From contig CAZWBJ010000002.1 of assembly GCA_964632175.1 (NCBI GenBank), positions 13,878 through 77,877 on the forward strand: 64,000 bases of DNA. The letters are read 5' to 3'. Source of the DNA: Candidatus Hadarchaeota archaeon. GTDB taxonomy: Archaea > Hadarchaeota > Hadarchaeia > Hadarchaeales > JAWBSP01. The position numbers and the translations under genes are program-made. This document shows, in pieces, positions 15,308 to 62,320 of this stretch; position 1 is the first letter of the stretch; the number at the start of each line of letters is the position of its first letter. The notes beneath the pieces were generated by a model. The model was not told the DNA's origin and did no database searches. It saw nothing but the letters and a program-made list of their open reading frames with translations.

Positions 15308-15475
15308 CTACTTCGCTTTATATTCGGTGTAACCACACTTCCCACAGGAAAATCTATCTTCGTGCTCCGCCATGAACGTCCCCACCCCGCATCTGGGGCA
15401 GAAAGGCCTGAGGTGGACAAGCCTCTTATCCAGCTTGTAAAGCTTGGAGACCCTCGCCTTCTCTTTCTCCTTCAC
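15308..15475 (-). CDS. rps27ae: Ribosomal protein S27ae (eS31), Zn-ribbon
   Basis: Manual translation gives [55 protein letters not shown] (55 aa). It is not in the ORF track because of its GTG start, which overlaps the S24e stop codon (GTGA). Confidence 0.8.
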
Positions 15476-15816
15476 TCTTTCTTCCCCTCCGCCTTCTTTT
15501 CTTCTGGCTTCTTTTCCTCTGGCTTCTCAGCCTTCTCTTTTGGCTTCCCTCGCTCCAAGAGGTGCTTCGGCTCGACGGAGAGGAGCCTCTCCATTCTCTG
15601 GTAGATGTGGGCGAGCCCGGAAGAGTAGCTCCTCCCGTGCAGGGTGGAAATCCTCCTTATGACCACCAGCTCAGGCTTCACCCCAAGCTTCTTCGACAGG
15701 AGCTCCAGAACCTCCGCCCTTCTGGGTGTGGCCGCGTTTGGATGGGAGATCCTGAACTGCACTTCCTTCCTCTCCAGCAGTGGGTTTTCCTTCTCCTCTA
15801 GGATTTCCACCTCCAT
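15472..15816 (-). CDS. rps24e: Ribosomal protein S24e
   Basis: S24e family sequence with a K/E-rich C-terminal tail. Confidence 0.85.
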
Positions 15817-16383
15817 TTAAAGAAACTTCTCAAACAGCCTCAAAAACTCCTCCCTTTTCTGCGCCGTTACCTCAACCGCCACCACTCCCTTCCCGGGCTG
15901 GCCGTAGAGGATGACCGCTCCCTCTGGAAGGAGGAACCCGCAGGCTAGGGTTGCCAGATCTTCCTCACCCTCCACCTCTATCCTCAGCGGCGTCGGGAGC
16001 TTGAGGGCCTCCATCAGCTCCCCTGTGAGAGTTCCGGGCGGGTTCCTGACCGTCACCGTTCTGGTCGGCCACTTGAGCAGGGCCTTCATCTCCTCCGAGA
16101 TGGGTTCCCGCATTATCCGATGGTCCACCACTGCAAGGTCGGGCGTGATACCTCTCCTTATCAGCTCACTGGTAACGGCGTCCCCCACCGAGGCTAGGAG
16201 CTTGGGCTTCCCGATGGCCTGCAGCGCCTGGTCCACCCCCTCGAACAGATGGCCCAGCGGGCACCTGAGAACGGGTCTAAGTTCCTCGGGCAGCCTTCTC
16301 ATTTTGAAGGAAGTGTATGGTTTCGATTGCCGCCGTCTGGGGGTCTGGCCAGGGAAGGATTTCCGCCGAGACGAAGCCTCCAA
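15817..16383 (-). CDS. DUF359 protein, predicted GTP-dependent dephospho-CoA kinase (archaeal DPCK)
   Basis: Conserved VGD...VVDHR motifs. It shows the classic gene context immediately upstream of rps24e-rps27ae. The true start is probably the internal Met at 16302. Confidence 0.6.
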   Translation of the reverse strand: MEASSRRKSFPGQTPRRRQSKPYTSFKMRRLPEELRPVLRCPLGHLFEGVDQALQAIGKPKLLASVGDAVTSELIRRGITPDLAVVDHRIMREPISEEMKALLKWPTRTVTVRNPPGTLTGELMEALKLPTPLRIEVEGEEDLATLACGFLLPEGAVILYGQPGKGVVAVEVTAQKREEFLRLFEKFL

Positions 16384-52523: not shown

Positions 52524-55500
52524 TCACCCCCTCGTGAAGCTTTTCCTCTGCCTGAACTCCTCCTGCTTTCCCTCGTTCCAGTTCCGAACGGGCCTGAAGT
52601 AGCCCACCACCCTAGAGTAGACCTCGGTCTCATGACCGCAGGAGGGGCAAAGTGGATAGTTTCCCGGGAGGTATCCGTGATTTGGGCAAATCGAATATGT
52701 TGGAGTAATGGTGTAGTAGGGTAGCCTGGAGCGCTCGGCAATCTTCCTCACCAGATTCTTACAGCTCTCGCCGTCCTCCAGGCTCTCCCCAAGGAAGATG
52801 TGAAAGACCGTTCCCCCCGTGTAAAGAGACTGCAGAGGCTCTTGGTGTTTGATAGCCTCCCAAAGATCAAGGTCCGCATCCACGGGAAGCAGGGTGGAGT
52901 TGGTGTAATAAGGGACGTCTTTTCCGGCGGTGATGATATCGGGATACATTCGCTTGTCGATCCTTGCGAGCCTGTAGCTGGTCCCCTCGGCGGGGGTGGC
53001 CTCCAAGTTGTAAAGATGGCCCGTCTCCGCCTGGAATTCCCTGAGCTTTTTGAGCATGAACCTCAGCGTTCGTATAGCAAAGTTCCTTCCTTCCTGCTCC
53101 GCGATGCTGCAACCAAGCAGGTTGAGGCAAGCCTCGTTCATCCCGACCAACCCGATGGTGGAGAAGTGATAATCCAAGGTGCCCAGATATCGTTTGGTGT
53201 AGGGGAGGAGGCCCGAATTCATTTTCCTCGTGACCTCCTTCCTCTTTATCTCGAGAGATATCTTCGCTAAGTTCATGAGGCGCTCCAGATTTTCAAAGAA
53301 CTCGTCCTCGTTCTCCGACAAGTATCCTATTCTAGGCATGTTGATCGTGACCACGCCCACGGAACCCGTTTTATCACCGGCGCCGAAAAGTCCCCCCGTG
53401 ATGTTCCTCCGCAACTCCCTCAAATCGAGCCGGAGATGGCAACACATTGACCTGACATCGCTGGGCCTGAGGTCGGAATTGATGAAGTTCTGGAAGTAGG
53501 GAAGTCCATATTTGGCAGTCATCTCGAAAAGGAGGGAGGAAACCCCGTCGTCCCACTTAAAGTCCCTAGTTAGACCAAAGGTGGGGATGGGAAAAGTGAA
53601 GGGCCTCCCTTCGGCATCCCCTTCCGTCATCACCTCGATGAAGGCCCTGTTGATCAGTTCCACCTCCTCCTCGAACTCCTCGTACGTCCTGTCCAGTGGC
53701 TTGCCCCCCACGATGGCGGGAGTTCTCGCTAGGTCATCGGGCACGGTAAGGCTGAGGGAAATATTGGTGAAGGGGGTCTGCCCTCCCCAGCGAGAAGAAA
53801 TATTCAGGTTGTAGACAAATTGCTGGAGCTTCTGCTTGACTTCCTTGTAGGTCAGCCCGTCCACCTTAACAAAGGGTGCAAGCAGGACATCCACAGCATT
53901 AAAGGCCTGTGCCCCTGCCCATTCGTTTTGAAGCGTTCCCACGAAGTTCGCCATCTGCAGGAGGGCTGTGTCGAGGTGCCGGGGAGGGGTGGAGGAGACC
54001 TTTCCCGGAACCCCATTGAACCCCTCCAGCAGGAGCTGCTGCAGCGACCAGCCCGCACAGTTACCGGACCAGACAAGCTTACCGTTCCTCTCCACGAGCA
54101 GGGTTCCGTTGGGCACGGTCAGATCGTAAACTTTTCCCCTGTACGATACAACTTCCGGTAAGCCGCGGAATTCAGGGGTGAGCTGGTGGTTCTCCACATA
54201 GACGACGTAACCGGTTTTCCTCTTCCTTATCGTACCGCATCTGCCAGTCTTCACCAAGCACTCGACCACATCTTCCGCGAGCCTCTTTGAGGAAGTGTAA
54301 TACGCGATGAGCCTGTCCCCCTTCACCCTCCCGTCCCCTTTAAACAGCTCCCCTAGGAAGGCCGAGAGGAGCTTCGGGTTCAGACGCTTCACTTCCGGGG
54401 GGATGAATTTCTCCCTGCTTCTACCCAGCCTCTTGACGTAGTCAAATACCTGTTTTGAGTAGAAGGTTACGTGAGATTTGGTTATCACAGGTTCAAAGCC
54501 CAACTGCCTGATTATTCTGGCAATCCGGCGCTGGTTACGCTTGTTGACCTGCGAGATGGAAATCCGGTATCCTCCTTTTGAAACGTCGCAGTTACCCTCC
54601 GCTATGTACCACCCCAGGAACCGCACAAAGGTCTCGGTGGGTGGGTCAACGTTTTTGAAGGTCCCTCCCTGCCCGTCAGAATGTACTTCCGGGAGACGCA
54701 ACTCTCCCTCCCCTTCCCAAACGGCATCCTTTCTGAACTCTATCACCCTCCTGTTAGAAAGTTCCGAAGCGGTGACAAACTTCCACTCTGGATCACAGTC
54801 TCCCGGTGCCCTCGGCTTCCTTCCCCGATAAATCCATTCGCTCACAGTCCCCTCGGGGATGCCGATCTCCTTGGAGATCCTGCGGGAGCCCCAACCCCTC
54901 TCCCTGTGTAACTTTAGTGCCTGGAAGTACTTCTGCAGCCTTGTTTCCATCTCTCCGCGCTTCTGCATCCTCCTGCGGATCTTTGTGCGGTTTGGCGGGA
55001 TTCTAACAAGCATGCGATGCTCGGGCGTCACAAGCAGATCGATGCTCCTGTTCCTCCAGTGATACATCGGACCGTCCCAGTCGAAAACTTGCTTGGCTAT
55101 GGGATGCTGAAACTCCAGCCTGCCCGTCTTTAGGTTAAGAGTTGCAACCCTATCGCTTGGTGTCACATCCTTGAAGTATTTGAACCCTTCCTCCGTCAGA
55201 ACCCTAGTTTCCTCATCGAAGCAATAGCCACACAGACCCATTCCCAGATCATGGATGTGGAAGTCGCCGGACACGTGAGCGGCCGCCACCTCAGGTGGGT
55301 AAACCTTTTCGAGAGTGTACCTTGCAATCACCGAGGTTCCAATGTGGAAGAGGAGGCCGGAAAGCGAGTAGCCCATGTTGCTGTTCTCCTTCACCCTCCA
55401 GTCGCTCAGGCTGAGGTAGTCATCCACGAGCTTCCTGACCTGTAGCTCGGCCCTCAGCTTCCTGAGCTCCTCCCTCTGCTTCCGGTAGATGATGAAGGCT

Positions 55501-55763
55501 TTGGCCGTCTTGGCGTGACCACGCTCGATCAGGATCTTCTCGATGGCATCTTGGATCTGCTCCACGTGCGGCGGGTTTTCCGAACCGAAGCCCTGTTTTA
55601 CGAGATAGTTCTCGACCTCCACAGCCAGTCTCTCGGCCCTCCGCTTGTCCCTCCCCCCCACCTCCTGGGCCGCCTTCCAGATGGCGTTGACGATCCTTTC
55701 CCTCTCGTAGGCGACGACCGTTCCATCCCTTTTGATCACCTTGGTCAGAACCATCTCAAACAC
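52524..55763 (-). CDS. nrdD: Anaerobic ribonucleoside-triphosphate reductase (class III RNR) interrupted by a 388-aa intein
   Basis: N-terminal ATP-cone, a C-terminal Zn ribbon CPNHG...CPSCG, and the glycyl-radical motif RVVGYF. The extein is 691 aa; the intein spans aa 181-568. Confidence 0.9.
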   Translation of the reverse strand: MFEMVLTKVIKRDGTVVAYERERIVNAIWKAAQEVGGRDKRRAERLAVEVENYLVKQGFGSENPPHVEQIQDAIEKILIERGHAKTAKAFIIYRKQREELRKLRAELQVRKLVDDYLSLSDWRVKENSNMGYSLSGLLFHIGTSVIARYTLEKVYPPEVAAAHVSGDFHIHDLGMGLCGYCFDEETRVLTEEGFKYFKDVTPSDRVATLNLKTGRLEFQHPIAKQVFDWDGPMYHWRNRSIDLLVTPEHRMLVRIPPNRTKIRRRMQKRGEMETRLQKYFQALKLHRERGWGSRRISKEIGIPEGTVSEWIYRGRKPRAPGDCDPEWKFVTASELSNRRVIEFRKDAVWEGEGELRLPEVHSDGQGGTFKNVDPPTETFVRFLGWYIAEGNCDVSKGGYRISISQVNKRNQRRIARIIRQLGFEPVITKSHVTFYSKQVFDYVKRLGRSREKFIPPEVKRLNPKLLSAFLGELFKGDGRVKGDRLIAYYTSSKRLAEDVVECLVKTGRCGTIRKRKTGYVVYVENHQLTPEFRGLPEVVSYRGKVYDLTVPNGTLLVERNGKLVWSGNCAGWSLQQLLLEGFNGVPGKVSSTPPRHLDTALLQMANFVGTLQNEWAGAQAFNAVDVLLAPFVKVDGLTYKEVKQKLQQFVYNLNISSRWGGQTPFTNISLSLTVPDDLARTPAIVGGKPLDRTYEEFEEEVELINRAFIEVMTEGDAEGRPFTFPIPTFGLTRDFKWDDGVSSLLFEMTAKYGLPYFQNFINSDLRPSDVRSMCCHLRLDLRELRRNITGGLFGAGDKTGSVGVVTINMPRIGYLSENEDEFFENLERLMNLAKISLEIKRKEVTRKMNSGLLPYTKRYLGTLDYHFSTIGLVGMNEACLNLLGCSIAEQEGRNFAIRTLRFMLKKLREFQAETGHLYNLEATPAEGTSYRLARIDKRMYPDIITAGKDVPYYTNSTLLPVDADLDLWEAIKHQEPLQSLYTGGTVFHIFLGESLEDGESCKNLVRKIAERSRLPYYTITPTYSICPNHGYLPGNYPLCPSCGHETEVYSRVVGYFRPVRNWNEGKQEEFRQRKSFTRG
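54060..55223 (-). mobile_element. Intein in nrdD with a LAGLIDADG homing endonuclease domain
   Basis: Starts with Cys (CFDEETRVLTEEGF, block A). LAGLIDADG-like motifs FLGWYIAEGN and LSAFLGELFKGDGRV. Ends in ...LVWSGN followed by the +1 Cys (CAGWSL). The penultimate residue is Gly, not the usual His. Confidence 0.8.
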
Positions 55764-56640: not shown

Positions 56641-57333
56641 ATGGAGGAAGTGAGGAGGGAGAAAGCCCCCGAGATCCTGGCTGCTCTGCTCTCGAGACCC
56701 AGGGGGGTGAGGGAACTATGGCAGGCAGTGGGGGGGAGTCCCAACACCGTCGAGCTGAGGGTGAAGGAGCTCCAGAGGGCGGGCTTGATCCAAGAGGGAC
56801 AATCGGAGACTTGGCCCTATAAAAAAGTCCTTTCCCTCACGGACAAGGGAAGGAGGGTGGCGGAGATGCTCAGACTCCAGACCTCCCTAACGGGACCCCT
56901 AAGGAGACCCACGGAGGAGGAACTCAAGGAAAGGGGAAAATGGCTCCTCTCCCTTCTTCACGTGCTGGGTGGGAGCCTGGAGGGCGCGGTCAGACTCCAG
57001 AAGCTCGTCTTCCTCATGAAGAAGGAACTCGGAATGGAGGTGCCCTACCAGCATGTGCCCTTCCAGCATGGACCCTTCTGCGGGGAGATCTACGAGGACC
57101 TGATGGATTTGGAAAGCGCCGGCTGGGTGAGCGTGGTGAGGGAGTTGGCCGAGCCCGTTCTGGTCTCGCTGACGGAAGAGGGGAAGAGGGTCGCCGAAGA
57201 GACCTTCCACTCCCTATCCAAGGAAGCCAAGGGGAACTGGGAGAAGCTGAAAGAGTTCAACCGGATGCCACTCTCGCAGCTGCTGGAGTACGTCTACACG
57301 CGCTACCCGAAGGAAAGCAGGATGCTGGGCTAG
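56641..57333 (+). CDS. Winged-helix DNA-binding domain fused to a DUF4065 (Panacea-like) domain; putative transcription regulator
   Basis: N-terminal wHTH (TVELRVKELQRAGLI). The C-terminal region LQKLVFLMKKELG...FQHGPFCGEIYEDL matches the DUF4065 consensus KLQKLLYFA...WKYGPVVPEVYEEL. Confidence 0.55.
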   Translation: MEEVRREKAPEILAALLSRPRGVRELWQAVGGSPNTVELRVKELQRAGLIQEGQSETWPYKKVLSLTDKGRRVAEMLRLQTSLTGPLRRPTEEELKERGKWLLSLLHVLGGSLEGAVRLQKLVFLMKKELGMEVPYQHVPFQHGPFCGEIYEDLMDLESAGWVSVVRELAEPVLVSLTEEGKRVAEETFHSLSKEAKGNWEKLKEFNRMPLSQLLEYVYTRYPKESRMLG

Positions 57334-57953
57334 GGCCTGCCCGTCTCCCTCATCTTCTTGAGGTCCTCAAACAGGGGCGGGGCCACTTGGTAAACTAGGT
57401 CAAACATCTTTTGGGCCATCCTCCTTATTTCCCACTGGGATTCCTCATGCAGCCTCAGCCTGAAGAAGTGCCTGAGTTCGCGGGCATTCACCGTCCAGTA
57501 CATCTTGGTCTCGGTGGCGTTCGTCAGCACGTACCGGGCGTCCTCCTTCCTCACCCCGGCTGCCACCAGCCCCCTGTAGAGCTCGAAGGACTTCCTCACG
57601 AACTCCTCCATCTTCTCCCTCTGCTCCCGCCTCACCTCCTCGGGGAGGTAATCGAGCGGGGGCAGCACGTACCTCCCCTTCCCCTCATCCACCCTCCTCT
57701 GACTGCGCTGGGTGAAGGAGCAGACGCGGTGCCTGACCCACTGGTGACTGAGGGCCCTCGAGATCCCCTCCACCCTGAAGGTGAAGGAGGCGTGCTCCAA
57801 GATGCTCTCGTGACCCAGCCTGATGATTTTCTGCACGAAGGCCCCGTAATCCTCTTTTTCCTCCTTGTCGTAGGAGACCCCCGCCGCCCTCCCGCAGACC
57901 TCCACCGGGTTAGGCGTGTAGGCCACCAGCTCAACCTTCAACTCGGCTTCCAT
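57330..57953 (-). CDS. thyX: Flavin-dependent thymidylate synthase
   Basis: ThyX motif SHQWVRHRVCSFTQRSQR (RHR...S); 207 aa. Confidence 0.9.
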   Translation of the reverse strand: MEAELKVELVAYTPNPVEVCGRAAGVSYDKEEKEDYGAFVQKIIRLGHESILEHASFTFRVEGISRALSHQWVRHRVCSFTQRSQRRVDEGKGRYVLPPLDYLPEEVRREQREKMEEFVRKSFELYRGLVAAGVRKEDARYVLTNATETKMYWTVNARELRHFFRLRLHEESQWEIRRMAQKMFDLVYQVAPPLFEDLKKMRETGRP

Positions 57954-58929
57954 GCCTCCTCACCTCAAGCAGCTTCTTCTTGTAGGACCCCGTATCTTCT
58001 TTCACCCAGTCCTCCACATCGAGTTTCAGAATGGATCCGTCGGCCCTCTTTATCACCACCCTCTTTATCCCGGCGTTGATGAGCACCCTTTTGCACCGGT
58101 CGCAGGGCCTCCCCTCCACCAAGCTCCCGTCCCTATAGTCCTGCCCGTAGAGGTAGAGGGTGCCACCTAGAACGCTCGCCCCGTGCCTCGCCGCGTTGAT
58201 GATGCAGTTCTCCTCCGCGTGGACACCGATGCACCACTCGTATCCCGTGTAGTGCGGAACCTTCATCTCCTCCTTAAGACAGCCGACCTCCATGCAGTTC
58301 ACCACCCCCCTCGCGGGGCCGTTGTACCCCGTGGAGACCACTACGTCCTCCTTCACCACTATCGCCCCGAACTGGCGCCGGATGCAGGGTGACCTCTGGG
58401 CCACGGACTTGGCTATCCCCAAGTAATACTCATCCTTGCTGGGGCGAGTGTCCATCTTCACCTCCCCCACGATTACCTTTCCCTCCGGAGTTATCTCCCC
58501 CCGCCTCACCCTCTCGGAAGAGATGGGAAGCCCGTCCTCCGCCAGCACCCAAGGGATCACCACGATATCGAGCGGCTTCAGCCCCCTCTCCCCCCGCAGC
58601 TTGTTTATCTCTCGGGCGGCTGGCTCCGTTTCCTCGCTCACCACGATGGCCTCCAGCTCCGGGTCCTCGGGCGCTGGCCCAAAAGGATCCTCCAAGGTGA
58701 AGACGATGGCCCTTTCCTCCCAGCCCCTCGAGCGCAGAAAGTCCCTGACGTTCTGGGTCCTGAGTTCCAGAGATTGGGTGACCCCCTTCCTGCTGGCAAG
58801 CTTCTCGCCCGAGATACCCAAGAGAACCTTCTCCCCGAGCTCGAAGGCCTTGGAGAGGAGGGCTTGGTGCCCCCGGTGGAAGTGCTCAAAGGTGCCACCC
58901 ACCGCCACCTTTCTGTACTTAGCCTGCAA
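57931..58929 (-). CDS. Continuous ORF fusing an N-terminal archaeal phosphopantetheine adenylyltransferase (PPAT) to a C-terminal dCMP deaminase
   Basis: aa 1-158: VAVGGTFEHFHRGH, IVVSEETEP, ISSERVRRGEI (archaeal PPAT, COG1019). aa 159-332: MDTRPSKDEYY...HAEENCIINAARHG...PCDRCKRVLINAGIKRV (dCMP deaminase Zn motifs). There is no stop codon between the two parts. Confidence 0.75.
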   Translation of the reverse strand: MQAKYRKVAVGGTFEHFHRGHQALLSKAFELGEKVLLGISGEKLASRKGVTQSLELRTQNVRDFLRSRGWEERAIVFTLEDPFGPAPEDPELEAIVVSEETEPAAREINKLRGERGLKPLDIVVIPWVLAEDGLPISSERVRRGEITPEGKVIVGEVKMDTRPSKDEYYLGIAKSVAQRSPCIRRQFGAIVVKEDVVVSTGYNGPARGVVNCMEVGCLKEEMKVPHYTGYEWCIGVHAEENCIINAARHGASVLGGTLYLYGQDYRDGSLVEGRPCDRCKRVLINAGIKRVVIKRADGSILKLDVEDWVKEDTGSYKKKLLEVRRHGSRVEG

Positions 58930-59677
58930 GCTCCCTCGCCCTCTCCCAGGCCTTCCTGATGGCCTTCCTCAGGGGTTTCACCTCCCCCAGCTCCCTCAAC
59001 CCCGCCTCCGTGGTTCCACCCGGGGAGGCCACGCTTTCCACAATATCCTCCGGGTCTCTTCCCTCAAGCACCTCCCCCCCGACCCCCCTCATCGTCTGGG
59101 CCGCGAGCTCTAGGGCCCGCTCCTTCGGCAAGCCCAGTCTAACTGCCTCCTCCACCGCGGCTTCCAGAAGGCGGGCGAAGAAAGCCGGGCCGCTCCCGCT
59201 TAAGGCCGTGACCGCATCCAGCTGCCCCTCCTCTACCTCCACCACCCTACCGAGTTGGGAGAGGAGTTCCCTCACCACCTTCACGGAACGCGCATCCGCC
59301 CTCCCGGGGCAAAGGGCCATGGCACCCTCCCTCCTTCTGCAAAGGATGTTGGGCATGACCCTGAAAAGCTTGGCCCCCTCCAGCCGCTCGAACTCCTTCA
59401 GCGGGACACCGGCGGCCACCGAAACGAGGATGTTCCGAAAGCCAGAGATCCCCTCCAGCACCTCCCTCACCTCCTTGGGCTTCACGGCGAGAAAGACCAC
59501 CTCGCAGGCTAGGACTCCCTCCTTCGGGGCCACCCTCACACCCAACGACCTCATGCGCTCCAGCTTGCCCTCATCCTTGTCGCTCACCCATATATCACGC
59601 GCCCTGATCCCGGCCCTGAGCAATCCCTCCACCAGCGCCGAGCCCATCCTTCCCGCCCCGATGATCCCAATCTTCAA
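58919..59677 (-). CDS. proC: Pyrroline-5-carboxylate reductase
   Basis: IGIIGAGRMG start and ProC family C-terminal region; 252 aa. Confidence 0.9.
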   Translation of the reverse strand: MKIGIIGAGRMGSALVEGLLRAGIRARDIWVSDKDEGKLERMRSLGVRVAPKEGVLACEVVFLAVKPKEVREVLEGISGFRNILVSVAAGVPLKEFERLEGAKLFRVMPNILCRRREGAMALCPGRADARSVKVVRELLSQLGRVVEVEEGQLDAVTALSGSGPAFFARLLEAAVEEAVRLGLPKERALELAAQTMRGVGGEVLEGRDPEDIVESVASPGGTTEAGLRELGEVKPLRKAIRKAWERARELAG

Positions 59678-61002
59678 GAGAGGAACCTCCTCCTGACCTC
59701 CTCCCAGTCGGTCGCAAGGGGCTGGTGCAGAAACTTTTTCCTCCCCTCCACATAGTCCGCCACCACCTGCCCGCTCCCGATCACGTAATACTTGGTAGTG
59801 GTGAGGCCCTCCAACCCCACCGGTCCCCTTGCGTGTAGCTTCCCCGTGCTTATCCCCACTTCCGCACCCAACCCATACCTGTAACCATCACTGAAGCGCG
59901 TGGAGGCGTTCCACATCACGGAGGAAGAGTCCACCCCCTCCAGGAACTCTAGGGCGGCCTTCGCATCCTCTGTCACTATCGCGTCAGTGTGCTTGGAACC
60001 GTGGGCGTTTATGTGGTCGACGGCCTCCCGCAGACTCTCCACCACCTTCACGGTGACCACGAGGTCCAGGTACTCGGTGTCCCAATCGACCTCCGTTGCC
60101 CTCTTTGCCTTGATGATCTTGAGTGTCTTTGGGCATCCCCTGATTTCCACACCCGCCGAACCCAGCCTCTCAGCCAACATAGGGAGGAATTTGCCGGCCA
60201 CAGAGGAGTGCACGAGGATCTTTTCCACCGCGTTGCAGACGGCCGGATACTGCACCTTGGCGTCGTAGCAGATTTCGAGAGCCTTCTTCAGCTCGGCACT
60301 AGCGTCGACATATATGTGGCAGATCCCCTCGGCGTGCCCGAGAACGGGAATCCTGGTGTGGGTCTGGATGTATTTTATAAATTCCTTGCTGCCGCGTGGA
60401 ACGAGCAGATCGATGTATTCATCGAGTTCCAGCATCTCCCTCACCTCCCTCCTCTCCTCTATGAGCTGCATCCATCCCGCGGGCACGCCCTCCGCCTCCG
60501 TGGCCTCCTTCATTATGGAAAAGAGGATCCGGTTTGACTCGGAGGCTTCCCTCCCCCCCTTCAGCACCACCGCGTTTCCCGACTTGAGGCAGAGGGAGGA
60601 AATCTGGGGAAGGACATCGGGCCTGGACTCGAAGATCGCCCCGATGACCCCTATCGGACAGGTTACCTTATAGACCTCCAGCCCCTCATCCAGCTTCATG
60701 GCGTAGACCGTTCTTCCCAGAGGGTCGGGAAGGGAGGCCACGCTCCTCAGGCTCTCCACGATGGAGTCCACCTTCTTATCAGACAGCTTCAGCCTCTCCA
60801 GCAGGGGTTTAGAAAGTTTTCCTTTTTTTACGAGCCGCTCCCCTCTGGACACGTCCAGCTCGTTGGCCTTCAGAATTTCCCGCTTCCTTTCCGCCACCTC
60901 CCGTGCGGCACGCCTCAGGGCGCCGTTCCTCACCTCGAGCGACAAGGTGGTCATGTGTAGGGCCGCTCGCCTGGCCTCCTTTACTTTCTGCAGGACGCTC
61001 AT
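59674..61002 (-). CDS. proA: Gamma-glutamyl phosphate reductase
   Basis: ProA (ALDH-like) family; 442 aa. Confidence 0.9.
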   Translation of the reverse strand: MSVLQKVKEARRAALHMTTLSLEVRNGALRRAAREVAERKREILKANELDVSRGERLVKKGKLSKPLLERLKLSDKKVDSIVESLRSVASLPDPLGRTVYAMKLDEGLEVYKVTCPIGVIGAIFESRPDVLPQISSLCLKSGNAVVLKGGREASESNRILFSIMKEATEAEGVPAGWMQLIEERREVREMLELDEYIDLLVPRGSKEFIKYIQTHTRIPVLGHAEGICHIYVDASAELKKALEICYDAKVQYPAVCNAVEKILVHSSVAGKFLPMLAERLGSAGVEIRGCPKTLKIIKAKRATEVDWDTEYLDLVVTVKVVESLREAVDHINAHGSKHTDAIVTEDAKAALEFLEGVDSSSVMWNASTRFSDGYRYGLGAEVGISTGKLHARGPVGLEGLTTTKYYVIGSGQVVADYVEGRKKFLHQPLATDWEEVRRRFLS

Positions 61003-61784
61003 CGCCTAGGTAGGAAGAGGGTTCCGAGTTCCTCACCGGCGAGAATTCTCTTCAGCACGTCCTTCTCCGCTGAGTTCGCCAGCACGGTGGGAATCCCGTG
61101 GGAGGTCGCCATCTTGGCCGCAAGCACCTTGGTGTACATCCCGCCAAACCTTTTTGAACTCCTGCCGACAGCCTCCTCCAGTTCCGGCGAGATCTCCTCC
61201 ACCAGCCTCACCAAGCGCGCGCCCGCACTGCTCCTGGGATCTTCGGTGAAAAGACCGTCCACATCGGAGAGGATGAGCAGGAGATCCGCGTTGGAGTGAA
61301 CCGCGACCTGCGCGGCTAGGAGGTCGTTGTCTCCTATCTTTATCTCCTCGGTCGCCACTGTGTCGTTCTCGTTGATGAGAGGTATGACGCCCCAGAGCAA
61401 GAGATTTTGGAGAGTGGCCTGAAGGTTCCGGAGCCTCTCGGGGTGGGTGAAGTCCTCGGCGGTGAGGAGAAGCTGGGCTACCGGCTGACCGTACTCGGAG
61501 AAAAACTTCTCGTAGGTCTGCATGAGAATGCCCTGCCCCACCGCTGCCGCCGCCTGGAGCAAGTCCAACCTGTCCGGCCTCTCCTTGAGGTTCAGCCTTC
61601 CCATGCCCGCCCCTATAGCGCCAGAAGTTACAACTAGGATTTCCCTTCCTTCCCTCACCGACATGATGTCGTGGACGAACTTTCCCACCTTGCGCTCGTC
61701 CAGCCTAGATCTCTCATCCGTGAGGCTGCTGGTTCCTATTTTCACCGTTATCCTGCGCACTCCCGAAAAATCCCGCCCCATCAT
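60999..61784 (-). CDS. proB: Glutamate 5-kinase (short form without PUA domain)
   Basis: Amino-acid kinase fold with ITVKIGTSSL...VVTSGAIGAG; 261 aa. Confidence 0.9.
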   Translation of the reverse strand: MMGRDFSGVRRITVKIGTSSLTDERSRLDERKVGKFVHDIMSVREGREILVVTSGAIGAGMGRLNLKERPDRLDLLQAAAAVGQGILMQTYEKFFSEYGQPVAQLLLTAEDFTHPERLRNLQATLQNLLLWGVIPLINENDTVATEEIKIGDNDLLAAQVAVHSNADLLLILSDVDGLFTEDPRSSAGARLVRLVEEISPELEEAVGRSSKRFGGMYTKVLAAKMATSHGIPTVLANSAEKDVLKRILAGEELGTLFLPRR

Positions 61785-62320
61785 AGTGTAGAAGCCTCGC
61801 TTTTAGTCGCGACCACAAAGACGTCCTCACACTCAGGCGGATCCAAGGCCTCCAGCACCCTGAAGCCCGACCGCCCCACCATTTCCGCCAAGAGGGGCAA
61901 CGGGTGCTTCTTCTTCAGAGAACTCAGGACGAGCCTTCCGCCAGCCCGCAGAACCCTGCTCATCTCCGCCAGCGCCCTGAGAGGCTCGGGGAAGTTCTGG
62001 AGGGCGGTGATGGAGAGCACCTGGTCGAAGACGCCGTCTCTGAAGGGTAGATGCTCCGCGTCCGCCAGCACGAGCACCCCCCTCGCCTTCCCCAGCATCC
62101 TCTCCGAGAAGTCCACCCCTACCACCAGCTCCGCAAGCCGCTGGAGCTCCCGCAGGTAGAGACCTGTCCCGCACCCCACCTCCAGGAGCCGCTCACAGGG
62201 GAGGAGATACCGTCGCGCAAGCTCGTACTTCCCAAGCTGGATCTCGCGGTACCTCCGCTCGTAAAAGTCGGCAGTCTGGTCGTAGAGTTCCCTCAGCTCC
62301 GCTTTCCTCCCCTCCCCCAT
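61781..62320 (-). CDS. Class I SAM-dependent methyltransferase
   Basis: LEVGCGTGLY motif I; 179 aa. Confidence 0.7.
   Translation of the reverse strand: MGEGRKAELRELYDQTADFYERRYREIQLGKYELARRYLLPCERLLEVGCGTGLYLRELQRLAELVVGVDFSERMLGKARGVLVLADAEHLPFRDGVFDQVLSITALQNFPEPLRALAEMSRVLRAGGRLVLSSLKKKHPLPLLAEMVGRSGFRVLEALDPPECEDVFVVATKSEASTL

Follow-up and report, generated by a model that had tools for sequence, protein, structure and literature searches.

An undescribed fusion of phosphopantetheine adenylyltransferase and dCMP deaminase in some uncultured Hadarchaeota-like archaea

Why would an enzyme of CoA synthesis and an enzyme of pyrimidine deoxynucleotide metabolism be encoded as one protein? 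This question is raised by an open reading frame in Candidatus Hadarchaeota archaeon (GCA_964632175.1), located in a 64,000-nt stretch of contig CAZWBJ010000002.1 (13,878-77,877) that was analysed as a whole and is referred to here as the window. The frame, coaD::dcd, lies on the minus strand at 57931..58929, opens with a TTG codon, ends with a stop at 57931-57933 and encodes 332 aa, and no internal stop was found in it. A sequence-only reading had described this frame as running without interruption from a phosphopantetheine adenylyltransferase (PPAT) into a dCMP deaminase, which was borne out, as it is a single ORF with both domains above curated cutoffs. The two Pfam families suggested in that reading for a domain check are both found, with CTP_transf_like (PF01467) covering residues 10-143 at 44.7 bits (cutoff 21) and dCMP_cyt_deam_1 (PF00383) covering residues 164-293 at 60.1 bits (cutoff 25). 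All of the motifs that it named are likewise present, including GGTFEHFHRGH, ISSERVRRGEI (136-146), HAE (237-239) and PCDRC (275-279), as is the internal Met followed by DTRPSKDEYY, which was found to be residue 159 (nt 58453-58455).

The N-terminal domain (residues 1-150; 58480..58929, minus strand) matches PPAT of the archaeal/eukaryotic type (CoaD) in both Pfam and NCBIfam, where the pantetheine-phosphate adenylyltransferase model NF001985 is matched over residues 3-153 with 159.5 bits (cutoff 104). The cutoff of the Thermococcales equivalog NF041124 is missed (98.8 vs 290), as expected given the different lineage. Motifs within this domain include H18xG20H21, VVSEE (96-100), D132 and ISSERVRRGE (136-145), and the majority residue of 72 PPAT homologues is kept at G11-G12-T13-F14, H18, G20, H21, V96-V97-S98-E100, D132, I136-S137, R140, G144 and E145. 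Residue E139 is shared with 18 of the 72 homologues, and the idea that ISSERxR is a degenerate form of ISSTxxR was dropped, since E is common in that column. In the AF2 model, residues 1-150 have pLDDT values of 90-98, and the best Foldseek match for this half is 3do8 from A. fulgidus (TM 0.81-0.88), a phosphopantetheine adenylyltransferase according to the PDB sequence file, which is also matched by the window protein in phmmer (E = 1.9e-24); bacterial PPATs rank next in Foldseek with TM of about 0.6-0.67. The domain would be expected from its family to adenylylate 4'-phosphopantetheine, giving dephospho-CoA.

The C-terminal domain (residues 159-332; 57934..58455, minus strand) carries the zinc motifs H237-A238-E239 and P275-C276-D-R-C279, which are kept in every fusion and standalone relative in the alignment. 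This half matches PF00383 and PF14437 and no other Pfam family. Its best PDB sequence matches (2hvv, 1vq2, 4p9c and 2w4l) are all deoxycytidylate deaminases, with 1hux as the one borderline non-deaminase match (E 7.7e-4), and its fold matches are 1vq2, 2hvw, 4p9e and 7fh4. As the cutoffs of the ComEB equivalog TIGR02571 (57.1 vs 219.45) and of the anti-phage dCTP deaminase model NF041025 (61 vs 400) are both missed, the assignment stays at the level of the dCMP deaminase family, and the putative substrate rests on this family-level similarity together with linkage to thyX. The thyX gene, encoding an FAD-dependent thymidylate synthase (57330..57953, minus strand; Thy1 218 bits, TIGR02170 191 bits), starts 23 nt inside the fusion ORF, so that the coordinates confirm the 23-nt overlap noticed previously. 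The same 23 nt are found in the fused contig L002 and in the unfused contig L016, and 20 nt in the fused contig L001. The zinc deaminase would be expected to turn dCMP into dUMP for ThyX, encoded directly downstream, and the proposed pairing of the two for the conversion of dUMP to dTMP is both correct and older than the fusion.

Is the continuous frame real? One explanation is that two genes, separate in reality as they are in L016, have been joined by an erroneous indel in sequencing or assembly near 58450-58480, and it can be said for this that the unfused relatives lie no more than a small indel, at an ATGA overlap, away from the fused frame, that metagenome assemblies have homopolymer errors and that the junction is G-rich. 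The search for the same fusion in related genomes that had been suggested found it in four 90%-identity clusters (P0001, P0002, P0003 and P0004), which have 100, 87, 79 and 79% identity to the window protein, respectively. The contigs carrying these copies (L001, L002, L003 and L022) come from four different JGI metagenomes, so that, with the window, the frame is continuous in five distinct sequences, and synteny is identical among those fusion contigs long enough to show it. At a PPAT identity of at least 72%, every member of the clade is fused and none is unfused. The linkers are all in frame (VIVGEVKM, VLGLRM, VLCRTMM and LLCGRMI) and are unlike one another in nucleotide sequence and length, with codons that show real in-frame amino-acid divergence, which makes identical independent errors implausible. 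An artefact is effectively refuted on these comparative grounds and was rejected as scarcely conceivable.

The origin of the fusion is suggested by its unfused relatives. In the Ca. Hadarchaeales contigs L016-L018 (GCA_964511205.1, GCA_038866625.1), which have the pre-fusion arrangement, the gene order is ProRS-M24-MTase-proB-proA-proC-coaD(158 aa)-dcd(175 aa)-thyX-HxlR-nrdG-nrdD, and the coaD stop and dcd start overlap by 4 nt (ATGA, in the context GGG ATG A). The deaminase start in L016 is MRADTRPTKDEYY, where the ATG overlaps the coaD stop TGA. In the window, the fusion ORF is preceded by an overlapping string of genes at 58919..62320, all on the minus strand, which consists of a methyltransferase (61781-62320, the first of the string), proB (60999-61784), proA (59674-61002) and proC (58919-59677), with overlaps of 4, 4, 4 and, between proC and the fusion ORF, 11 nt. 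This methyltransferase-proB-proA-proC order is common to L001, L002 and L016-L018, and the TTG start and the sequence upstream of it are common to fused and unfused coaD. In an NJ tree calculated without bootstrap, the PPATs of the fusions form a single clade, whose sister is the adjacent-type PPAT P0126. In more distant Hadarchaeota the two genes are found in unrelated contexts, and the neighbourhoods of standalone deaminases and PPATs (P0005, P0007, L006, L007, P0267, P0268 and P0280) are unrelated as well. Scans of the window for Rfam families and for tRNAs gave no hits.

By comparison of these extant junctions, an ancestor like the present Ca. Hadarchaeales MAGs would have had the tight string methyltransferase-proB-proA-proC-coaD-dcd-thyX, with the coaD stop placed over the deaminase start (ATGA), and a small indel at this junction may have merged the frames and removed the coaD stop, leaving one polypeptide of 332 aa translated from the conserved coaD TTG start. 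Since coaD and dcd were by then overlapping neighbours within a single operon, such a small frame-merging indel suffices to fuse them, and the view that a covalent fusion to a CoA-biosynthesis enzyme is unexpected was overstated. Archaeal PPAT also has other known fusion partners (DPCK, NTPase_I-T). The sequence-only reading had also considered that orthologues might always carry one gene for each domain, with the same junction sequence. Separate genes are indeed found in the sister group L016-L018, but their junction differs (ATGA), and the fusion's own clade is entirely fused. Taken together, the locus is very probably a genuine, lineage-specific fusion of translationally coupled neighbours that yields a two-domain enzyme, and it resembles an unremarkable merging of genes that overlapped within an operon, with no obvious metabolic logic.

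What the fused protein does can be approached from its constraint and predicted structure. Purifying selection on both halves is strong, with dN/dS of about 0.08-0.09 (window vs L002/L003: PPAT half 0.086-0.093, deaminase half 0.077), and low dN/dS combined with intact motifs in both domains supports a bifunctional protein. Of the two alternatives offered in the sequence-only reading, that of a novel bifunctional protein has held up in that the fusion is real in all four lineages of the clade, while the bifunctionality itself has the support just described; the product is probably a bifunctional two-domain enzyme, with both activities and the full-length polypeptide predicted from sequence. 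In the AF2 model, which is of a monomer, both domains are folded confidently (mean pLDDT 85) with a disordered linker, and a pTM of 0.53 predicts no fixed interdomain arrangement. The linker, KVIVGEVK (residues 151-158; 58456..58479, minus strand), is the counterpart of the C-terminal tail of standalone PPATs, varies from one fusion lineage to another in both length and sequence, and in the window protein has its low-confidence stretch around residues 156-160 (pLDDT <50). The product would resemble "beads on a string", with a flexible linker of 8 residues between its domains.

The N-terminal domain might instead have been recruited for the deaminase/ThyX pathway, either as a nucleotide-binding module for regulation or oligomerisation or as another kind of nucleotidyltransferase, with CoA being made through a separate coaD elsewhere in the genome. 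The gene does lie among dcd, thyX, nrdG and nrdD and away from CoA genes, the DPCK of the window being a separate gene at 15817-16383, 42 kb from the fusion. In addition, archaeal PPAT-like domains are recurrently fused to nucleotide-pool enzymes such as NTPase_I-T, and the genome in view is this 64 kb; if a second PPAT exists elsewhere in the genome, the fused one could have another role. However, no second, standalone PPAT was found in these 64 kb, the domain exceeds the curated NCBIfam cutoff for PPAT, every conserved catalytic-motif column is kept, its dN/dS of about 0.09 resembles that of the deaminase half with no relaxed or shifted constraint, and it falls among the PPATs of Hadarchaeota, of which one adjoins coaBC. 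Such a change of function is therefore judged highly improbable. Equally improbable is a functional coupling of CoA supply to DNA-precursor synthesis, in which a dCTP/dTTP-regulated deaminase oligomer would scaffold or regulate PPAT, or the PPAT-like domain would act as a nucleotide sensor. While such regulatory coupling of CoA and dTMP synthesis would, if true, be new biology, no result here requires it. As the PPAT and deaminase reactions have no shared intermediate, the likeliest effect of the fusion is to lock in co-expression and stoichiometry, if it is not near-neutral, rather than to form a channel.

The second alternative of the sequence-only reading was that internal initiation yields a separate deaminase. 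Ribosomes would then also, or instead, start at Met159 (58453..58455, minus strand) by way of the SD-like GGAGGTGA (58458..58465, minus strand), which lies 2 nt ahead of this ATG, or 5 nt when counted from its GGAGG core. A free deaminase of ~174 aa could assemble alone or as mixed oligomers with the fusion. This does not conflict with a real fusion, and in the coupling scheme above such initiation could adjust how many subunits are fused and how many are free. The position of the codon is suggestive, as Met159 aligns within three residues of the start of the separate deaminase in unfused relatives, and a Met is kept no more than 2 residues from DTRPSKDEYY in all four fusion lineages while the remaining linker is about 40-50% conserved, although in P0004 it has moved by one position (RMIDTRP). 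The full-length ORF is opened by a weak TTG codon. In the window, GGAGGTGA-AG precedes the ATG with a duplex energy of -15.5 kcal/mol, ranking 2 of 259 internal in-frame ATGs, and of five GGAGGTGA(N0-8)ATG sites two or three were judged from coordinates to be probable gene starts.

Against this, when the four junctions were aligned and anti-SD duplex energies calculated, a good motif near Met159 was found in the window lineage only, whereas in L001, L002, L003 and L022 it is missing or poorly spaced, so that an SD-driven start is no conserved feature of the fusion and a conserved SD for internal initiation was rejected. Motifs just as strong, each with an ATG in frame, occur inside the single-domain proA at 60435 and within the deaminase at 58293, and GAG-GTG codon pairs are a chance source of such motifs. 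Pairing strength does not tell predicted starts from internal ATGs in the window (means of -4.84 vs -4.88 kcal/mol), with start prediction being crude. Furthermore, termination-reinitiation coupling, the probable driver of the unfused deaminase gene, is lost on fusion. What stands of the internal-initiation proposal is the Met in all lineages and the strong motif of the window, and a free deaminase made alongside or instead of the fusion is considered rather unlikely.

The PPAT–dCMP deaminase fusion is undescribed, and it is present in a small group of uncultured Hadarchaeota-like archaea. An exhaustive phmmer search of 1.84 billion representatives found no other PPAT–deaminase fusion among the best 150 matches, those matching in two stretches being intein-containing deaminases or PPAT-DPCK proteins. 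A scan of GTDB species representatives returned deaminase-only loci, an exact-sequence look-up of P0001 gave no match, and in the literature no paper was found linking PPAT and dCMP deaminase as a fusion. The public fusion copies that have a source name, P0002 and P0004, are labelled "pantetheine-phosphate adenylyltransferase" or "cytidyltransferase-like protein", and such PPAT-only labels hide the dCMP deaminase of the lineage, its putative source of dUMP for ThyX. With "before" (ATGA-overlapping neighbours) and "after" (a single ORF) preserved in closely syntenic genomes, the locus is a clean natural example of coupled operon neighbours merging. It also calls for care in "Rosetta stone" inference, as the fusion unites enzymes without a common pathway.

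The closest known arrangement is that of the Ca. Hadarchaeales L016-L018 (P0126 and the gene downstream of it), which share with the window a 10-gene synteny, the coaD TTG, the 23-nt overlap of deaminase and thyX, and the deaminase N-terminus M..DTRP.KDEYY. They differ in having two ORFs (158 + 175 aa) in different frames with an ATGA overlap where the window has one frame. Their PPAT is only about 57-59% identical to that of the window, and their deaminase only 69%. Standalone dCMP deaminases (S. mutans 2hvv/2hvw, phage T4 1vq2, cyanophage S-TIM5 4p9c, human 2w4l; ComEB family) have in common with window residues 159-332 the CDA fold, HAE, PCxxC and the GYNG block, at an identity of only about 27-31%. 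Unlike these, the window deaminase has a longer Cys/His-rich insert at residues ~206-236, modelled at low confidence, an 11-residue insertion before PCxxC and an N-terminal PPAT domain.

Other examples of PPAT joined to a second enzyme have a C-terminal partner of another kind, that of the window being neither DUF359/DPCK nor DUF84/NTPase_I-T. Archaeal PPAT-DPCK fusions, in which PPAT is joined to arCOG04076/DUF359, gave a correct lead to the archaeal DPCK that had been missing (Shimosaka et al., 2019; PMC6650551). These proteins and eukaryotic CoA synthase resemble the window protein in that a PPAT of the archaeal/eukaryotic type is fused to a second enzyme, with PPAT N-terminal in the PPAT-DPCK examples P0203, P0245, P0252 and P0262 as in the window, but DPCK carries out the next CoA step and so gives the fusion a pathway logic, whereas the window partner belongs to pyrimidine deoxynucleotide metabolism. 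The proteins of NF002250/PRK01170 (bifunctional PPAT/NTP phosphatase; Pfam NTPase_I-T) also have, like the window protein, an N-terminal PPAT and a C-terminal nucleotide-pool enzyme in 315-335 aa, and they too join enzymes without a shared intermediate. The window protein matches NF002250 through its PPAT half only (126 bits vs a cutoff of 489), as the C-terminal domain of that family is a DUF84 inosine/xanthosine triphosphatase, while that of the window is a zinc deaminase of the CDA fold.

The coaD::dcd gene (57931-58929, minus strand) encodes a protein in which a phosphopantetheine adenylyltransferase (PPAT, CoaD) is joined to a dCMP deaminase. The ORF list and the raw sequence agree with the sequence-only reading in giving an uninterrupted frame of 332 codons, from a TTG at 58929 to the stop at 57931-57933. 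Both domains claimed in that reading are found by HMM search above the Pfam gathering cutoffs, with CTP_transf_like covering residues 10-143 and dCMP_cyt_deam_1 covering residues 164-293. With NF001985, the NCBIfam pantetheine-phosphate adenylyltransferase subfamily model, the ORF reaches 159.5 bits where the cutoff is 104. The internal methionine that opens the deaminase half is residue 159 (nt 58453-58455). Downstream, the claimed 23-nt overlap is with a gene identified as thyX (FAD-dependent thymidylate synthase; 57330-57953, minus strand; Thy1 218 bits, TIGR02170 191 bits), while upstream the TTG start overlaps proC (58919-59677, minus strand) by 11 nt. The fusion gene is fifth in a minus-strand string of six genes with mixed functions (SAM methyltransferase, proB, proA, proC, coaD::dcd, thyX; 62320 to 57330), whose successive overlaps are 4, 4, 4, 11 and 23 nt.

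Compared with 72 archaeal PPAT homologues, the PPAT half retains every strongly conserved column (GGTF, H18xG20H21, VVSEE, D132 and ISSxRxRxGE), and 18 of them share the E of its ISSER, a common variant. The deaminase half likewise retains H237-A-E239 and P275-C-x-x-C279. An AlphaFold2 model, built from a 23-sequence alignment that had been checked (A3), averages a pLDDT of 85, with values of 90-98 in the PPAT domain, 85-96 in the deaminase core and below 50 in linker residues 156-160; since the pTM is only 0.53, interdomain packing is modelled without confidence. In Foldseek, the N-domain matches 3do8 (A. fulgidus PPAT-like; TM 0.81-0.88) and the C-domain matches dCMP deaminases of T4, S. mutans, S-TIM5 and PBCV-1, and PDB sequence searches concur for both.

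A search for the same fusion in related genomes, as the sequence-only reading had proposed, covered 5.8 billion protein clusters and recovered both Pfam domains on a single chain in four of them: P0001 (identical to the window protein), P0002 (87%), P0003 and P0004 (79% each). Their genes lie on contigs L001, L002, L003 and L022, each from a different JGI metagenome, and their linkers vary in length and sequence (VIVGEVK-M, VLGLR-M, VLCRTM-M, LLCGR-M-I) while the frame remains unbroken in every lineage. An assembly or sequencing artefact was therefore rejected, as independent identical errors cannot explain differing linkers that are always in frame. Low dN/dS in the PPAT half (0.086-0.093) and the deaminase half (0.077; Nei-Gojobori, window vs L002/L003) shows that selection maintains both.

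The history of the gene appears mosaic when 57931-58455 is compared with L001, L002 and L022. Nucleotide identity between the window and L002 is ~87% over proC and the PPAT half, 79-82% in the deaminase half and 91-95% in thyX, that between L002 and L001 jumps from ~67% elsewhere and reaches 86-89% once the deaminase half begins, and trees of the two halves conflict in topology, which suggests that the deaminase module recombined between lineages.

Both halves have their nearest relatives in Hadarchaeota, and the source is probably an archaeon related to that group. Searched alone, the PPAT half finds its nearest standalone relatives there at 57-60% identity, including P0126, which bears the NCBI name of a Ca. 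Hadarchaeales PPAT. At the P0126 loci (L016-L018, including assemblies GCA_964511205.1 and GCA_038866625.1), the window's gene block is shared: ProRS, M24 peptidase, methyltransferase, proB, proA, proC, coaD, dCMP deaminase, thyX, a convergent HxlR-like gene, nrdG and nrdD. The sequence-only reading was to be refuted by orthologues that always encode the domains separately with the same junction sequence; these loci do have two genes, for a 158-aa CoaD and a 175-aa deaminase, but with a different junction, and in P0001-P0004 the two are fused. At the unfused junction, the coaD frame ends ...TCG GGA TGA and the deaminase frame begins ATG AGG GCA GAC ACC AGA CCC, with a 4-nt overlap of stop and start; a small frame-merging indel at this ATGA would suffice to make the fusion. 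The unfused deaminase begins MRADTRPTKDEYY, the window counterpart being ...GEVK-MDTRPSKDEYY, and since Met159 aligns no more than 3 residues from the unfused start, it is probably a relic of that start codon. Standalone PPATs extend ~8-10 residues beyond the RRGEIxxxGK block, and the 8-residue "linker" is the old PPAT C-terminal tail. The TTG start with its upstream sequence is common to fused and unfused coaD, the 23-nt deaminase/thyX overlap also occurs in unfused relatives, and both features are older than the fusion. NJ analysis without bootstrap support places the four fusion PPATs in one clade, with P0126 as its sister, and the fusion deaminases are likewise monophyletic. In more distant Hadarchaeota the two genes occupy unrelated locations, the deaminase gene downstream of a gltD-like gene and the PPAT gene after an Nre-family gene or adjoining coaBC. 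The order of events was likely relocation to one operon, then overlap, then fusion.

It was also considered whether a separate deaminase is initiated at Met159 in this organism, coexisting with the fusion and not replacing it. This is rather unlikely, even though GGAGGTGA sits 2 nt before the Met159 ATG, its anti-Shine-Dalgarno (anti-SD) duplex energy of -15.5 kcal/mol ranks second among 259 internal in-frame ATGs, and a methionine is kept at or beside position 159 in all four lineages while the rest of the linker is poorly conserved. The other three lineages lack the SD-like motif or have it at the wrong spacing, the fusion destroyed the ancestral termination-reinitiation coupling, and the crudely predicted gene starts in the window show no more resemblance to SD sites than internal ATGs do. 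Motifs of equal strength lie within proA (60435, minus strand; -15.9 kcal/mol) and the deaminase itself (58293, minus strand; -15.4 kcal/mol), in each case before an in-frame internal ATG of a single-domain coding region, showing that the GAG-GTG/GGT-rich coding sequence of this genome yields them by chance.

Translation of the fusion ORF would presumably start at the conserved TTG through coupling. The expected product of the N-domain is dephospho-CoA, which a separately encoded dephospho-CoA kinase (DPCK) would convert to CoA, and that of the C-domain is dUMP for ThyX. A standalone DUF359/arCOG04076-type DPCK (15817-16383, minus strand; Pfam 113.9 bits), with ribosomal protein S24e directly downstream (15472-15816), places the last CoA step 42 kb away from the PPAT of the fusion; within the 64-kb window no second PPAT was found. 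With no intermediate common to both reactions and with independent domains in the AlphaFold2 model, we read the fusion as a probable co-expression or neutral event and not a channel. That a deaminase oligomer links the regulation of CoA synthesis to that of dTMP synthesis, perhaps with internal initiation as a means of tuning, seems very improbable.

Between thyX and nrdG, convergent on thyX, lies a gene (56641-57333, plus strand) for a 230-aa protein whose N-terminal domain is a winged helix (HxlR/PadR-like), a candidate regulator of the neighbouring nucleotide-metabolism genes; L002, L003 and L016-L018 have the gene in the same place, and L001 has there a gene of similar size (229 aa) with no Pfam match recorded. 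The anaerobic ribonucleotide reductase NrdD (52524-55763, minus strand) has 1079 aa against 687-689 aa in its L001, L003 and L016 orthologues and carries a 388-aa insertion (residues 181-568, nt 54060-55223) with LAGLIDADG_3 and HTH matches and intein-like boundaries (C-F-D-E-E at the start, S-G-N then Cys at the end); its exteins are 89% identical to L001. Outside the window, LAGLIDADG inteins interrupt the close standalone dCMP deaminases P0121, P0122, P0075 and P0096 (65-72% identity to the window domain), and inteins seem to be common in the nucleotide-metabolism genes of this group. Neither tRNA genes nor Rfam families at gathering threshold were found across the 64-kb window.

The fusion is real and conserved, and it has an explanation, very probably a merger of overlapping operon neighbours. 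It offers a neat example of gene evolution and matters for annotation, but its biological surprise is modest. Among the 5.8 billion protein clusters the architecture is confined to P0001-P0004; an exhaustive phmmer search of 1.84 billion representatives, in which 50% clustering may hide some, gave no other protein matching both halves in the best 150, and the fusion was found neither in GTDB species representatives nor, as a described protein, in full-text literature searches. PPAT fusions of other kinds recur among the homologues, namely PPAT-DPCK (arCOG04076/DUF359), through which the archaeal DPCK was discovered (PMC6650551), and PPAT-NTPase_I-T, which has its own NCBIfam model (NF002250). 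While the partner in these known archaeal fusions is DPCK or NTPase_I-T, in the window protein it is dCMP deaminase, a new domain architecture among the bifunctional PPAT fusion proteins, themselves a known class.
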